The position numbers and the translations under genes are program-made. From assembly GCA_001824275.1 (NCBI GenBank), contig MHWW01000002.1:13266-77265 (forward strand): DNA of 64,000 nucleotides, written 5' to 3'. Of this stretch, positions 1,079-54,780 are shown one piece after another. Numbering within the stretch: position 1 is the first letter of the stretch; the number at the start of each line of letters is the position of its first letter. The DNA comes from Candidatus Zambryskibacteria bacterium RIFOXYC1_FULL_39_10. Its GTDB lineage: Bacteria; Patescibacteriota; Minisyncoccia; Phycocordibacterales; WO2-35-19. The notes under the pieces were generated by a model that searched no databases, had not been told where the DNA came from, and saw only the letters and a program-made list of their open reading frames with translations.

Positions 1079-1124
1079 GAGTTAAATTTTCAATTTAGAA
1101 TTTTCAATTTAGAATTTTCAATTT

Positions 1125-2537
1125 TCAATTTTCATTTAAAAACTTTTTGCCAATTTCAAATAAAATATTTTCATTACTGTGCGATGACATTAATTGTACA
1201 CCAAGTGGCATATTATTGGTTCTGGATAATCCAAAAGGCAAGGAGATGGCGGGGCAACCTACGATGTTGGCAGCAACAGTAAAAACATCGGCCAAATAAT
1301 TTTCTAGCGGAGTTTTTTTCTCCCCTATTTTCCAAGCGGGAAACGGAGTGGTCGGAGTGAGGATAGCGTCAACCTTTCCAAATGCATCTTTAAATTCTTC
1401 GCTGATTTTTTTGCGAGCCTGCATCGCTTTACCATAATACGAATCATAATATCCAGCTGAAAGTATGTAGGTTCCTAAAATAATTCTCCTTCGAGCTTCA
1501 CTGCCAAAACCTTCACCACGACTTTTTTTGTAAACTTCTAAAAGATTTTCCCCTTCCACTGACAAACCATATTTAATGCCATCAAATCTGGCAAGGTTTG
1601 ACGAAACTTCGGCCGGCATCACGATGTAATAAACCGCAAGCGCCTTGTCTATATTTGGAAGTGAAATGTCTTGTATCTCATAACCCAGATTTTTAAGTTT
1701 TTTAACTGATTCTTCAATATTTTTCTTGGTGTCTGCATCAATGCCGTCGCCGTCTAAAATGTGATAAGGAACTCCTATTTTAAAATTTTCAATTTTCAAT
1801 TTAGAATTTTCAATGTCAATGCTTGTACTGTCCATCTTGTCTTTGCCTTTGATGGTGTTGAAGATAATTTCGGCGTCAGAAACGGTTTTGGTAATAGGCC
1901 CTATGACATCAAGGGACGAGCCCATAGCCATGAGCCCATAACGGGAAACACTACCGTAGGTCGGCTTAAGGCCCACCATTCCGCAGAAACTAGCCGGCTC
2001 CCTCACCGAGCCGCCTGTGTCAGACCCAAGGGCCCCTAGAGCCATATTTCCGGCCACAGAGGCCGCCGAACCGCCACTTGAGCCTCCAGAGACCCTAGTC
2101 GGATCTAGAGGGTTTTTGGTCACCCCAAAGGCTGAATTTTCGGTCGAACCGCCCATGGCAAATTCATCCATATTGGTGCGTCCTAAAAATATGGCATTTT
2201 GGTCTAAAAGTTTTTGGGCGGCAGTAGCAGTATAAATGGCTCTATAATTTTCTAAAATCTTAGAAGCTGAGCTGGCCTTTTTGCCTCTTATTAAAATATT
2301 ATCTTTGATAGCCAAAGGAATACCAGTCAGCTCCCCCGCACCACCTGCATCAATAACTTTTTGCGCCTCTTCAGCATTTTTCAAAACATCATCATAAACT
2401 TCCAAAAAAACATTGAGCTCTTTATTTTTATCATTTATATTTTCCAAATAAAATTTGGCAAGTTCAACAGCCCCAAGCTCTTTGGAATCTAAAAGTGTTC
2501 TAGCTTTTTGTATTGTTAAATTTGATAATTCTGACAT
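1125..2537 (-). CDS. gatA: Glu-tRNA(Gln) amidotransferase subunit A (amidase signature family).
   Basis: 470 aa with the Gly/Ser-rich amidase signature GGSSGGSAASVA and the catalytic region. gatC lies immediately upstream. Confidence 0.9.
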   Translation of the reverse strand: MSELSNLTIQKARTLLDSKELGAVELAKFYLENINDKNKELNVFLEVYDDVLKNAEEAQKVIDAGGAGELTGIPLAIKDNILIRGKKASSASKILENYRAIYTATAAQKLLDQNAIFLGRTNMDEFAMGGSTENSAFGVTKNPLDPTRVSGGSSGGSAASVAGNMALGALGSDTGGSVREPASFCGMVGLKPTYGSVSRYGLMAMGSSLDVIGPITKTVSDAEIIFNTIKGKDKMDSTSIDIENSKLKIENFKIGVPYHILDGDGIDADTKKNIEESVKKLKNLGYEIQDISLPNIDKALAVYYIVMPAEVSSNLARFDGIKYGLSVEGENLLEVYKKSRGEGFGSEARRRIILGTYILSAGYYDSYYGKAMQARKKISEEFKDAFGKVDAILTPTTPFPAWKIGEKKTPLENYLADVFTVAANIVGCPAISLPFGLSRTNNMPLGVQLMSSHSNENILFEIGKKFLNEN

Positions 2538-2578
2538 TGGAAATTTATTGAAAATTGTAAATTAAAAATTGAAAATTC

Positions 2579-2917
2579 TTACAGTATCTTCTTAACCTTC
2601 AAATATCCATTTTCTTTATTTGGAAATTCTCTTAAAACATCGTCGGTATAATTGCCCGACTCATTTGGGTTTTGGTCTTCTCTGAAAACATTCATAACGC
2701 CCCCCTTGAAAAGCTCCACGTTTTCGCTTTCCAACCCTCTTACAACAAGAGGGGGGTTCTCGGACACTTCATTTTCATCTGAATGAAAATTTTGAATGAT
2801 TTTCACATAATCCAAAATAGAGTCCATCTCATGAGCAAGACTTTCTACCTCTTTTTCTGGTATTTCTATCCTGGCCAAATCAGCCAATTTTATTATTTCT
2901 TCTTTGGTAATCGCCAT
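2579..2917 (-). CDS. gatC: Glu-tRNA(Gln) amidotransferase subunit C.
   Basis: Starts MAITKEEIIKLADLARIEIPEKE, a typical GatC N-terminus. Directly upstream of gatA. Confidence 0.8.
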   Translation of the reverse strand: MAITKEEIIKLADLARIEIPEKEVESLAHEMDSILDYVKIIQNFHSDENEVSENPPLVVRGLESENVELFKGGVMNVFREDQNPNESGNYTDDVLREFPNKENGYLKVKKIL

Positions 2918-3000
2918 GGTTCAATAATAACATTTATTTTACTGTTTTCCATTATTTGCAGAAACAAAAATTTAATCGTATAGTCTTTATGGAGATACCT

Positions 3001-3426
3001 ATGATTCTTTCAGAACAATTGCGCAAAAGAAGATTCAAGCTTGGTCTAACCCAGCGAAAAATGGCCGAACTCATAGGAGTCAATCCTCGAACCATAGAAC
3101 AATGGGAAAGTGGTGATAACAATGTCTCACCAAAAAAGAGACAGAAAGCAGCAGAGAGTTATCAGATATCAAAGTCGGAAATTGAGAAACTCTGTTTTGA
3201 ATTGGAAAAAACAAAAACACAAAACAGAAACCTCCGGAAAGGTCTCAACAAAAAACCGGCTCAGACAGTTATAGAGGAATACTCCTCTTCCGTAATTGGT
3301 GACGCTTTATTTTGTGAGACGGGGGTAAGAGAAGTTTCAATACGGAATTTGCGCATGGTAAGTAGGAAAGGGCAAGGCGGCAAGCCTAAAAAGTTCTTCA
3401 TAGAGCAGAAGAGGATTACATTCTGA
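3001..3426 (+). CDS. XRE-family helix-turn-helix transcriptional regulator.
   Basis: HTH motif [26 protein letters not shown] chose the ATG at 3001 because GGAG sits 8 nt upstream; the ORF track begins earlier at 2956. Confidence 0.7.
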
Positions 3427-53132: not shown

Positions 53133-53594
53133 TTCTTTAACTTCTTCAGCCTCCGCCACCTTTTCAGCATTTTCTACAATTTTTTCTTCTACTGCCTCCA
53201 CTTCTTCAATAGTGACGACTTCGGGGAGGGCTTGAGTATTTCTCATTTGTCTTCTAATTTCTTTAGCGGCTTTTTTGCGGATGTGATAGAGTTTGGCGCG
53301 ACGCACTTTGGAGCGCTTGGTCACTTCAATCTTTTCAATCATTGGGGAATATATAGGGAAAATCCTCTCTACTCCAACTCCTGATGCTACTTTTCTCAGT
53401 GTGATAGTGCCACCCACTTCTTTGCCGTGTTTAACCGCCAAACATAGTCCTTCAAAATCCTGTAATCGAGTTTTTGGTTTACCAGTTTTTTTATCCTTCT
53501 CAACAATTTTTTGAGTGACACGAACAGTATCACCAGACTTAACATCTAGCCTCTTTCTCTCTTCTATATTTACTGTTGAAATTTTAATATTCAT
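53130..53594 (-). CDS. rplS: 50S ribosomal protein L19 (with an acidic C-terminal extension).
   Basis: Contains GDTVRVTQKIVE...LQDFEGLCLAVKHGK...TLRKVASGVGVERIFPIYSPMIEKIEVTKRSKVRRAKLYH, matching bL19. Confidence 0.85.
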   Translation of the reverse strand: MNIKISTVNIEERKRLDVKSGDTVRVTQKIVEKDKKTGKPKTRLQDFEGLCLAVKHGKEVGGTITLRKVASGVGVERIFPIYSPMIEKIEVTKRSKVRRAKLYHIRKKAAKEIRRQMRNTQALPEVVTIEEVEAVEEKIVENAEKVAEAEEVKE

Positions 53595-53599
53595 ATGAT

Positions 53600-54448
53600 T
53601 TATCTCTTCTTACCCACCTTTCTTCTGCTAACAATAAACTTGTTTGAATACTTTTTGGATCGGCGAGATTTCTGACCCTTGCCAGTTGGTTTGCCCCATA
53701 GGGAAATCGCTCTTCGACGACCTCTACCTTGTCTACCCTCACCTCCACCGTGTGGATGATCAACTGGGTTCATAGCTGTACCACGAACAGTTGGGCGAAT
53801 GCCTTTCCAACGGCTTTTGCCCGCTTTACCATAATTTTCAAGTCTTTTTTCTTCATTTGAAACTTCTCCAATACTTGCCCAGCAAGTTTCTTTAACTTTA
53901 CGTATTTCAGTAGAAGGCATTTTTAAATCAACAGAGCCAGCGTCTTTAGCAATCACCTGGACGAAGTTTCCAGCCGAACGAGCAATCCTTGCTCCGCCTT
54001 TTGGCTTGAGTTCAACATTGTAAACCGAAGCACCAACGGGGATTTCTCGAAGAGGCAACCGGTTACCTTGTTTTATTTCTGCATTTTCTGCGGTCACTAA
54101 TTCTTCGCCAACTTTGACACTTTTTGGCAAAAGAACATATCTTTTTTCACCATCTTTATAAACTGCTTGACCAATAAAACCAGTGCGGTTTGGATCGTAT
54201 TCAACCGAAACAATTTTATAAGGAATATTTATTTTATTGTATTTAAAATCTATCTCTCTGTATAACCTCTTGTGGCCTCCACCTTTGTGGCGGACAGTGA
54301 TCCGGCCAGCGCTGTTTCTACCCACCGCCCTTTTTCTACCAAAAGTAAGAGCTTTCAACGGTTTGTTTTTGGTCAAAATTGATTTCAAAGAGACGACTGT
54401 CATGCCTCTTCTTGATTTTGATGTTGGTTTGTAAGTTTTGATTGCCAT
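53600..54448 (-). CDS. rplB: 50S ribosomal protein L2.
   Basis: 282 aa, uL2-like. Confidence 0.95.
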   Translation of the reverse strand: MAIKTYKPTSKSRRGMTVVSLKSILTKNKPLKALTFGRKRAVGRNSAGRITVRHKGGGHKRLYREIDFKYNKINIPYKIVSVEYDPNRTGFIGQAVYKDGEKRYVLLPKSVKVGEELVTAENAEIKQGNRLPLREIPVGASVYNVELKPKGGARIARSAGNFVQVIAKDAGSVDLKMPSTEIRKVKETCWASIGEVSNEEKRLENYGKAGKSRWKGIRPTVRGTAMNPVDHPHGGGEGRQGRGRRRAISLWGKPTGKGQKSRRSKKYSNKFIVSRRKVGKKR

Positions 54449-54452
54449 AATA

Positions 54453-54740
54453 TTATTCTATCTTATCTCCCTTTTTTAAATAAACATACGCCTTTTTCAC
54501 TCCCGCCTTCACTCCCTTTTTGCCACGCAAAAATACTTTTTTGGCTGGGTTTCTGACGATTCTGATTTTGATTGGGTTTATTTTATAAAAAATTTTGATT
54601 GCTCCTGCAACTTGCAATTTAGTCGCCGATGAGGCGACCTCAAAAGTATAAACATTATTTTCCAATACCAACGAAGCCTTTTCGGTGATTCTAGGCCTTA
54701 TCAAAATGTCGGCGTATTTTGCTTTTAAATCAGTTACCAT
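54453..54740 (-). CDS. rplW: 50S ribosomal protein L23.
   Basis: 95 aa, uL23-like. Confidence 0.85.
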   Translation of the reverse strand: MVTDLKAKYADILIRPRITEKASLVLENNVYTFEVASSATKLQVAGAIKIFYKINPIKIRIVRNPAKKVFLRGKKGVKAGVKKAYVYLKKGDKIE

Positions 54741-54780
54741 GTTAGTTAATTGAAAAATTAAATGATTGAAAATTGAAAGA

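Follow-up and report, generated by a model that had tools for sequence, protein, structure and literature searches.

Heptanucleotide repeats of probable slippage origin in essential and type IV pilus genes of a Candidatus Zambryskibacteria genome

We analysed the tandem repeats in a 64,000-nt stretch of DNA (hereinafter the window) from Candidatus Zambryskibacteria (Patescibacteria; candidate phyla radiation, CPR), specifically from the metagenome-assembled genome RIFOXYC1_FULL_39_10 of an ultra-small bacterium in a groundwater metagenome. The repeats belong to a known class, the dispersed heptanucleotide simple-sequence repeats. They are probably slippage-derived microsatellites that are degenerate and stable in essential genes and active in type IV pilus genes, where they yield frameshift alleles. 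Whole-unit changes arise in the pilus genes on a time scale with essentially no base substitutions. About 75 kb of DNA of this genome was covered, and all evidence at the population level comes from consensus assemblies.

Excess of tandem repeats with a period of seven nucleotides

Each of the ten sites listed in a preliminary description of this DNA carries the repeat. Tandem Repeats Finder assigns period 7 to 1085-1138 (7.1 copies of a 7-mer, or 3.9 copies of the 14-mer AATTTTCAATTTAG), 1784-1814, 2547-2577, 6474-6504, 7713-7745, 22814-22871 (8.9 copies, with 72% matches only) and 54748-54778 (weak), and period 8 to 8087-8113 and 8231-8265. The double unit AATTTTCAATTTTC occurs 27 times with at most two mismatches, compared with 6.75 ± 2.9 times in shuffled sequences, and none of 100 shuffles reaches 27. 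When window positions are ranked by self-similarity at lag 7 or lag 8, the top 0.01–0.08% include the five main arrays, the argS tract and the two arrays of pilD; 19596-19615 and 54748-54780 are marginal (top 0.3–0.8%, by lag 7 and lag 8, respectively). The strong arrays are confined to the first 8.3 kb of the window, namely to gatCA, ligA and the type IV pilus cluster.

A register-aware scan identifies the unit as the heptamer GAAAATT (equivalently AATTTTC) in place of the octamer AATTTTCA proposed before; a separate octamer, CAATCTTT, is found in pilD. GAAAATT is on the coding strand at 1081-1142, 1776-1817 and 7710-7750, and AATTTTC at 2545-2581 and 6469-6508. Read directly from the sequence, a pure tandem array of GAAAATT contains TGA in all three frames. 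For this reason, coding copies of GAAAATT carry variant units (TCT, TGG) that remove TGA, and it is through these variants, not through copy number as previously suggested, that the frame is kept.

The period-7 excess extends to the clade. Eight relatives were chosen via GatA (76–92% identity) and not via the repeats; together with the window they make up 172 kb. This set contains 21 period-7 arrays where a first-order Markov model predicts 0.2 (about 100-fold excess), periods 4–6 occur at expectation, and the two period-8 arrays are both in the pilD of the window. The unit is AATTTTC in 13 of the 21 arrays, and GCTATTG, GAAATAC, AGCTCTC, CTCTAAG, ATGAATT or CAGAATC in the others.

A pattern search across phyla, with one genome per species and selected on the GAAAATT/AATTTTC unit, retrieved more than 120 loci from Bacteroidota, Patescibacteria, Acidobacteriota, Planctomycetota, Cyanobacteria, Clostridia and others, including isolates and genomes of 63–68% G+C. 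In 120 of these loci there are 236 period-7 arrays against 14–24 for periods 5, 6 and 8, and their 76 distinct units are spread over every G+C class. A conserved cross-phylum motif was considered and rejected: the same loci hold 75 other heptamers and the search had selected on this one, which points to a general period-7 process. Thermoanaerobaculia of 63–68% G+C carry intergenic inverted pairs of the form (GAAAATT)4, GC-rich spacer, (AATTTTC)4 (L078 497-580 and 1930-2010; L035; L095; L008 7135-7272), in which the second arm ends 10–20 nt before the next ATG, the spacers differ and the arms are conserved.

Unit-number alleles in pilus genes

The repeat tracts of the pilus genes, with the hairpins that accompany two of them, are as follows. 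Gene starts in the pseudopilin leaders were deduced from the coupling of stops and starts together with the G|F motif.

6469..6508, plus strand: array D, four AATTTTC units (coding strand) in the leader MSKIFNFKFSIFNKNPRSG|FTVLE of pseudopilin 5946..6512; polymorphic.
6457..6467, minus strand: small GC hairpin CCGCGGAGCGG directly between array D and the G|F cleavage site.
7710..7750, minus strand: array E, GAAAATT units and a GGAAATT variant at the leader-coding 5' end of pseudopilin 7065..7760.
7700..7712, minus strand: GCGAAGC-type mini-hairpin CCTGCGAAGCAGG after array E, encoding PAKQ.
8231..8265, minus strand: first pilD array, (CAATCTTT)4.4, encoding NLSIFQSFN near residue 100.
8087..8116, minus strand: second pilD array, (CAATCTTT)3.4, encoding NLSIFQS near residue 150 of PilD (7744..8562); polymorphic.

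Nine assemblies with an identical gatA are at least 99.8% identical overall. Three arrays in and around gatA (A, C and the GatA-linker array, listed below) are invariant in them, and arrays D and E are also identical in those that reach them. Cluster look-ups, in turn, revealed shorter PilD and pseudopilin products. In L140 (ERZ27254750, a 77.9-kb MEGAHIT contig from another sample), one 8-nt unit is lost from the second pilD array, with no other difference from the reference in 6,546 nt. PilD is cut to 181 residues and ends short of the GFGDVK segment, which can be aligned in each of the five PilD sequences examined and probably belongs to the active site. In L143 (ERZ27254729), exactly two heptamers (14 nt) are gone from array D, with one other substitution in 1.1 kb, and the frame of pseudopilin 5946..6512 reads MSKIFNFQ and stops after eight codons. 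In L141, a 148-nt deletion joins both pilD arrays. Clusters of ten repeat-free neighbouring genes contain plain truncations only and no frameshift tails. Two further candidates were discarded: the apparent pilC frameshift of L141 is a run of N in the scaffold and no mutation, and P0145/L142 is a shorter gene call on identical DNA.

Taken as simple-sequence repeats, the arrays consist of head-to-tail units of at most 11 nt (periods 7 and 8, 3–9 copies), exceed the expectation from composition and are polymorphic in unit number. Taken as contingency loci, array D and the pilD arrays have a non-triplet unit in frame and lie in genes with a surface function, as indicated by the G|FTVLE prepilin motif of the pseudopilin, the Peptidase_A24 domain of PilD and the neighbouring T2SSE, T2SSF and N_methyl genes. 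Long perfect tracts were not found at these loci; the tracts have 2–4.5 units, some of them imperfect, and the alleles are losses only, one per locus. The slipped-strand or contingency reading of the preliminary description is thus supported for the pilus genes, by native seeds, unrelated heptamers at the same sites and the −14 and −8 nt alleles. It finds no support for hypermutable housekeeping arrays, as those of gatC, gatA and orf227 are invariant in the nine assemblies. Similarly, the variable pseudopilin expression suggested there gains support from the −14 nt frameshift in the leader array of L143, and phase variation that is reversible and adaptive may follow from it.

Several observations weigh against active slippage. 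The tracts are short, compared with the usual six or more perfect units in classical contingency loci. A single allele was seen for each variable array, in every case in a metagenome assembled by third parties, so that a library or assembly artefact is possible. Neither a gain-of-unit allele nor a within-sample ON/OFF mixture is present among the consensus assemblies compared. The 148-nt deletion in L141 may be real or a de Bruijn mis-join. The length of the leader arrays is near-constant across paralogues (30–33 nt), which is not expected from pure slippage. Furthermore, certain arrays are conserved and not labile: the GatA-linker array is common to lineages whose GatA is just 76–78% identical, and the gatC/gatA spacer array is identical at 37 of 41 positions between L121 and L135, with flanks about 70% identical.

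The microsatellites could be neutral or mildly harmful, and the −8 and −14 alleles rare deleterious mutations or artefacts with no switching in use, an explanation that we regard as possible though doubtful. It would account for single variant alleles, each in one re-assembled sample, for the N gaps in the L141 scaffold, for the short tracts and for the invariance of the nine main-population assemblies. However, both clean variants are exact whole-unit losses in tracts far shorter than the k-mer or read length, and they occur in otherwise 99.9–100% identical DNA. Both are in pilus genes, while none of the ten control genes has a frameshift tail, and close strains whose mature pseudopilins are near-identical have entirely different leaders.

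Arrays at gene junctions

Four arrays lie at junctions between genes.

1081..1142, minus strand: array A, about seven GAAAATT units with two CTAAATT variants (14-mer higher-order unit).
2545..2581, plus strand: array C, filling the 41-nt gatC/gatA spacer with AATTTTC on the coding strand; no Shine-Dalgarno sequence.
19592..19616, minus strand: rpmC/rpsQ junction, weak, about two units, supplying the TGA stop of the upstream gene (top 0.7%).
54738..54782, minus strand: rplD/rplW spacer, filled by a degenerate AATTTTC-type array that ends 10 nt before the ATG.

Array A had been described as intergenic (1084-1137), which is only partly correct. Because a GAAAATT array has TGA in all frames, array A supplies the stop codon of gatA; specifically, its first unit holds the TGA at 1125-1127. 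The rest of the array ends 8 nt upstream of the next ATG (1078), that of the DUF4145-like gene 395..1078. In the closest relatives (L132, L134) the array is missing, and the gatA stop abuts or overlaps the next start. The 3' end of gatA in L133 reads ...AAT GAA AAT TAA and contains the seed AATGAAAATTAA. The window extends this end as AAT GAA AAT TGA AAA TTG AAA ATT..., and the array has therefore arisen in situ.

The spacer occupied by array C is likewise variable. In relatives it is reduced to 1 nt (L130), 10 nt (L131, L136) or an overlap (L137), or is filled with other heptamers, namely (ATGAATT)3 in L133 and GTATTAW units in L134. An XRE-family helix-turn-helix (HTH) gene between ligA and gatC (window 2989-3426, plus strand; L135 9170-9601) is present only in the window lineage and L135, which are also the two lineages with a common gatC/gatA spacer array.

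These positions raise the question of a function in cis. The arrays might serve as A/U-rich, unstructured spacers for translation initiation (bound, for instance, by ribosomal protein S1) that replace the Shine-Dalgarno sequence at junctions inside operons, or else as weak sigma-70/UP-like promoters, bidirectional terminator tails or heptad operators; taken jointly, these functions are an unlikely explanation. Consistent with such functions, four arrays end 8–20 nt before a start codon that has no Shine-Dalgarno sequence, two of them in a ribosomal-protein operon, and the TAACTGA repeats of other bacteria are placed likewise (PMC4679880). In a set of 196 arrays from other genomes, the distance from array to start is at most 20 nt in 61 of 160 cases, in both orientations equally, although this peak is inflated by crude first-start calling of open reading frames (ORFs) and is of qualitative use only. 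Between L121 and L135, conservation is higher in the gatC/gatA array than in the coding sequence on either side, the arrays match TTGAAA-17-GAAAAT at 9 of 12 positions, and the inverted intergenic pairs of high-GC Thermoanaerobaculia enclose a GC hairpin. However, these junctions are without arrays in the closest relatives (0–1 nt spacers or overlaps), which have no substitute signal there. Unrelated heptamers occupy the same places, both orientations occur, and the arrays are also found inside coding sequence. The promoter-like matches are weak, and Rfam yields nothing at the arrays. Scans for promoters and terminators returned only the 9/12 consensus matches within arrays and one hairpin-plus-array 'terminator' on the non-coding strand, and were judged unpersuasive.

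Concerning gene expression in the window more generally, Shine-Dalgarno sequences are rare and stop/start overlaps are common. A TATAAT-like hexamer lies about 8–35 nt from the ATG in many genes, which suggests leaderless or very short-leader mRNAs. The only Rfam match in the window is a tRNA at 50881-50953 (minus strand); it is overlapped by the mechanical ORF 50582..50959, which is hence probably spurious.

Repeated rewriting of leaders and protein segments

The leader of pseudopilins in the clade has a common layout: Met and two to four residues, a heptamer array of 30–33 nt, a GCGAAGC-type mini-hairpin (P/S-A-K-Q/R) and the G|FT cleavage site. Array E begins at the stop codon of pilD (7744-7746), and the L134 orthologue of pseudopilin 7065..7760 has an equivalent arrangement (KLKIENCKLKI). 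Across leaders the arrays vary in orientation and phase (IFNFQFSIFN, FSIFNFQFSI, KLKIENCKLKI) or in unit, with (GAAATAC)4 in L131. The recurring entity is therefore the nucleic-acid repeat and not the peptide. In very close relatives with an almost identical mature pseudopilin, there are three unrelated leaders built from other repeats. A translated search for (NFQFSIF)n gave 22 weak matches, all to short hypothetical ORFs of 45–81 residues.

The hairpin in homologous leaders is CCTGCGAAGCAGG, CCCGCGAAGCGGG or CCGCGAAGCGG, with paired changes. Its stems vary in pairs (CCTGC...GCAGG versus CCCGC...GCGGG; leaders in L130 and L134-L136), and this change couples a synonymous Pro position to a Gln/Arg change, which hints at selection on the nucleic-acid fold. 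The leader of pseudopilin 7065..7760 also contains, at 7657-7697, a 33-nt palindromic insert, CCACACACC AAAATCTT GGTGTCC, with direct GGGTTTAC repeats on both sides. The insert duplicates the G|FT prepilin cleavage motif (GFTHTPKSLVSG|FT), and is also found at L130 317-934 and in three L133 paralogues.

Both PilD sites are reused in relatives. At the first site, the segment length of the window is kept by (GCTATTG)4 in L131 and (AATTTTC)4.5 in L134; the site is longer in L133 and L135, the latter having an interrupted AATTTTC array and about 12 more residues. Other repeats seen at the two sites are CTGGATT/CTAGATT units and AGCTCTA units. Other rearrangements also affect the pilus cluster: in L133 (2509-4193), insertions around the pilin gene, which lies upstream of pilD, have brought in a GIY-YIG gene and an IS200/IS605-type Y1 transposase.

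The remaining coding tracts lie in essential genes.

1776..1817, minus strand: array B, inside gatA (1125..2537), encoding IENSKLKIENFKI in a variable inter-domain linker; its variant units avoid TGA.
22813..22871, minus strand: argS tract, a degenerate heptamer (GRATTTY on the plus strand) in a variable linker of argS (22545..24347).
3647..3679, minus strand: linker before the BRCT domain in ligA, 7-periodic (GAGCAGT CAGAATC TAGTAGC CAGGATC TAGGT); not noted previously.
3788..3835, minus strand: helix-hairpin-helix segment of ligA, with a weak period of 8–9.

The segments encoded by the repeats in GatA and ArgS had been considered as possible insertions. They are instead existing variable linkers, no longer than those of solved homologues. 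The GatA segment is five residues shorter than its Thermotoga equivalent, and the ArgS tract aligns residue for residue with the Pyrococcus linker, at equal length. A metagenome scan gave two relatives for ArgS (L138, L139); the tract is six residues longer than in these, which have short palindromes there. A clean (AATTTTC) array is found at the same ArgS spot in Levybacteria (L109).

For array B, both peptide and DNA are the same in L135-L137, and L134 has one substitution (TGT for TCT, IENCKLKIENFKI). An unrelated insert adds seven residues within the array in L132, and a CCCCTCTCC...GGAGAGGGG hairpin takes the place of the array in L131 and L133. Selection on the linker at the DNA level was considered, since 43 of 46 codons are identical against 41–51% elsewhere, which looked striking at first. 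This claim was dropped: conditioned on codon usage, 7–9 of 11–12 would be expected to be identical, A/T-ending codons are preferred, and the identity is only weakly beyond expectation.

Small palindromes occur in the same linkers. A GC-rich hairpin, CCCCTCTCCT-N6-AGGAGAGGGG, is intergenic at window 32720-32745 and sits in frame in the GatA linkers of L131 and L133 (SPLTPLLDAGEGK / LTPSPSPCQGEG), recalling the palindromic elements inside Rickettsia genes. The motif GTCCTGAGCATAGCGAAGGGC is intergenic at window 49256-49276, and its relatives (cttgtcctgagagtattgaagg; ccttcgatgctctcgggac) are in frame inside arrays of the L132 gatA linker and the first pilD site of L135. PSTSLRAS-like inserts are present in several GatA homologues.

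In ligA, the linker before the BRCT domain is 7-periodic in all eight lineages, and its length is kept in six (L130 is one residue shorter, L131 one longer). It is homogenised to different units, specifically (YAGAATC)5 in L135, (CAGCTCT)4 in L131 and GAATTAT units in L134. The helix-hairpin-helix site carries AATTTTC-type arrays in L131 (degenerate), L134 and L137, with a one-residue change in length.

A mobile mini-satellite, as envisaged in the preliminary description, or a module resembling a miniature inverted-repeat transposable element (MITE) that consists of the array or of the array with its GC hairpin, would insert at permissive sites, including coding sequence. Near-identical 30–33-nt (AATTTTC)4.5 blocks in four L134 genes and two L136 genes are compatible with such a module, as are the 14-residue difference between long and short pilin leaders, which equals array plus GCGAAGC hairpin, and the variant pattern GAAAATTCTAAATTGAAAATT in arrays A and B and the Saccharibacteria locus L011. 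Against this, the arrays have no terminal inverted repeats, target-site duplications, constant borders or constant module, and they vary in copy number, phase, orientation and unit. At most hot spots (PilD, LigA) they replace sequence with little or no change in length, gatA has a native seed, and none of the window arrays is accompanied by a transposase or recombinase. We therefore consider a mobile element very improbable.

That the arrays are a chance product of A/T-rich composition (33–42% G+C in the window) and codon bias can be dismissed with near certainty, since, although the DNA identity of the GatA linker derives largely from the preference for A/T-ending codons, no shuffle reaches the observed counts, period 7 alone is in 100-fold excess with the other periods at expectation, and arrays are found in genomes of 63–68% G+C.

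Genes of the window

The minus strand holds nearly all genes of the window. The first 15 kb contains orf227 (DUF4145-like), gatA, gatC, the divergent XRE-type HTH gene, ligA, five prepilin-like genes, pilD, a pilin and pilC/pilB-type genes. The remainder includes a ribosomal-protein cluster and argS.

Discussion

The most probable origin of the arrays, slippage, suggests the following model. The clade would be strongly biased to tandem duplication and homogenisation at a 7-nt offset, as many other bacteria seem to be. Given this bias, arrays would nucleate on native A/T-rich seeds and persist where the sequence is weakly constrained, namely in spacers of translationally coupled genes, in cleaved prepilin leaders and in variable linkers or membrane segments of conserved proteins. 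The arrays of essential genes (gatA, argS, ligA) carry interruptions, preserve the frame and are stable. Those of the type IV pilus genes are cleaner and still active; unit loss gives frameshifted, presumably non-functional alleles in natural sister populations, and these tracts may behave like contingency loci able to switch off pilus components. The turnover that conserves length may proceed by unit replacement, either because gain and loss are paired or because slipped heteroduplexes are corrected, with selection acting on frame and length. Replication slippage is the presumed mechanism, and the changes could be reversible and the switching adaptive. The fuller proposal, in which 7-nt slippage both switches pili through the prepilin peptidase and pseudopilins and acts as an engine that rewrites segments of GatA, ArgS, LigA and PilD with little change in length, is put forward tentatively, as less probable than not.

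The locus provides a compact test case: the same hot spots are present across nine lineages within 8 kb, from perfect tracts to degenerate arrays, and two tracts are seen changing by whole units. Should mixed lengths be confirmed in reads, Patescibacteria would for the first time show signs of contingency-type switching, which would touch type IV pili and the single prepilin peptidase that controls all pilins. Cultivated Patescibacteria need type IV pili for episymbiosis and motility (PMC12206443). The arrays also carry a warning for annotation. In-frame heptamer tracts and small palindromes in conserved CPR proteins should not be taken for domain insertions, and where a CPR pilin has such a tract, its start codon and leader peptide cannot be relied on.

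Three points appear undescribed in the searchable literature: the abundance of heptamers in Patescibacteria, the rewriting of the same segments mostly at constant length, and frameshift alleles in a prepilin peptidase and a pseudopilin. A literature search gave no Patescibacteria paper on heptamer repeats, and a search on the repeat sequence gave unrelated eukaryotic papers only. Among the matches listed, no paper on Patescibacteria or pili mentions phase variation, and in the literature searched no account was found of repeat-mediated switching of the structure with which these episymbionts attach to hosts and take up DNA. Dispersed heptanucleotide repeats as such have been known since 1990 and 2007; to our knowledge, there has been almost no experimental work on their cause and function.

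As summarised in later papers, heptanucleotides rank first in abundance among the long simple-sequence repeats of bacteria, and an origin by polymerase slippage has been put forward (Mrazek 2007, via PMC4679880, PMC4692102). The class includes the cyanobacterial short tandemly repeated repetitive (STRR) sequences and the GGGAATC / GGGGAYT repeats of Xanthomonas and Nostoc (PMC4692102). According to the same summaries, the repeats of Mrazek, Guo & Shah (2007) resemble ours in being short head-to-tail 7-nt arrays that are dispersed and mostly intergenic, with lineage-specific units, a period-7 excess and occasional inverted pairs, and in varying in length and sequence between related species while keeping their location. 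The window arrays differ in their CPR host, A/T-rich unit, large share in coding sequence and lack of G-quadruplex potential; those in coding sequence affect conserved proteins, at their leader peptides, linkers and membrane segments.

Two other systems are alike in part. In Borg genomes (PMC9879509), tandem repeats arise de novo and independently in ORFs at permissive places and rewrite protein segments. These coding repeats, however, are long, have a unit length divisible by three and extend the protein by new disordered regions, whereas the window has 7- or 8-nt units in short arrays and segment length is mostly conserved. The TTTTGAT heptads of the Vibrio cholerae ctxAB promoter (bioRxiv 10.1101/2021.05.14.444153) are A/T-rich, close to the TTTTCAA of the window and strain-variable in copy number, but they are promoter operators that recruit transcriptional regulators, and no such role or binding protein is evident for the window arrays.

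For behaviour, contingency loci are the relevant comparison. In Neisseria opa, a contingency locus, CTCTT repeats lie in the region encoding the signal peptide. In Haemophilus influenzae, hmw1A and hmw2A are contingency loci with 7-bp repeats (PMC8262952, PMC12721329). As in these, the pilus tracts are non-triplet repeats at the 5' end or leader of genes for surface structures, a change in unit number shifts the frame or alters expression, and variants occur among otherwise clonal genomes. They differ in having 2–4.5 units against typically 7–28, in belonging to a candidate groundwater episymbiont and not to a host-adapted pathogen, and in having the prepilin peptidase itself as one target.

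For placement, the relevant comparison is the TAACTGA direct repeats of marine Beggiatoaceae, some Cyanobacteria and Bacteroidetes (MacGregor 2015, PMC4679880). In both systems, two to six copies stand within a few nucleotides ahead of a start codon, which as a rule lacks a Shine-Dalgarno sequence; ribosomal-protein operons are among the places concerned. In both, the forward orientation stops all three frames and often provides the stop of the upstream gene, and the reverse is translatable and lies near protein termini. This placement is found for arrays A and C and at the rpmC/rpsQ and rplD/rplW junctions. TAACTGA differs in its unit and in the post-transcriptional regulator proposed for it, for which no candidate was identified in the case of the window arrays; the window differs in having relatives without arrays at the same junctions and in its documented unit-number alleles. 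The TAACTGA repeats are the closest parallel in placement, and the leader-region contingency repeats of opa and hmw the closest in behaviour.

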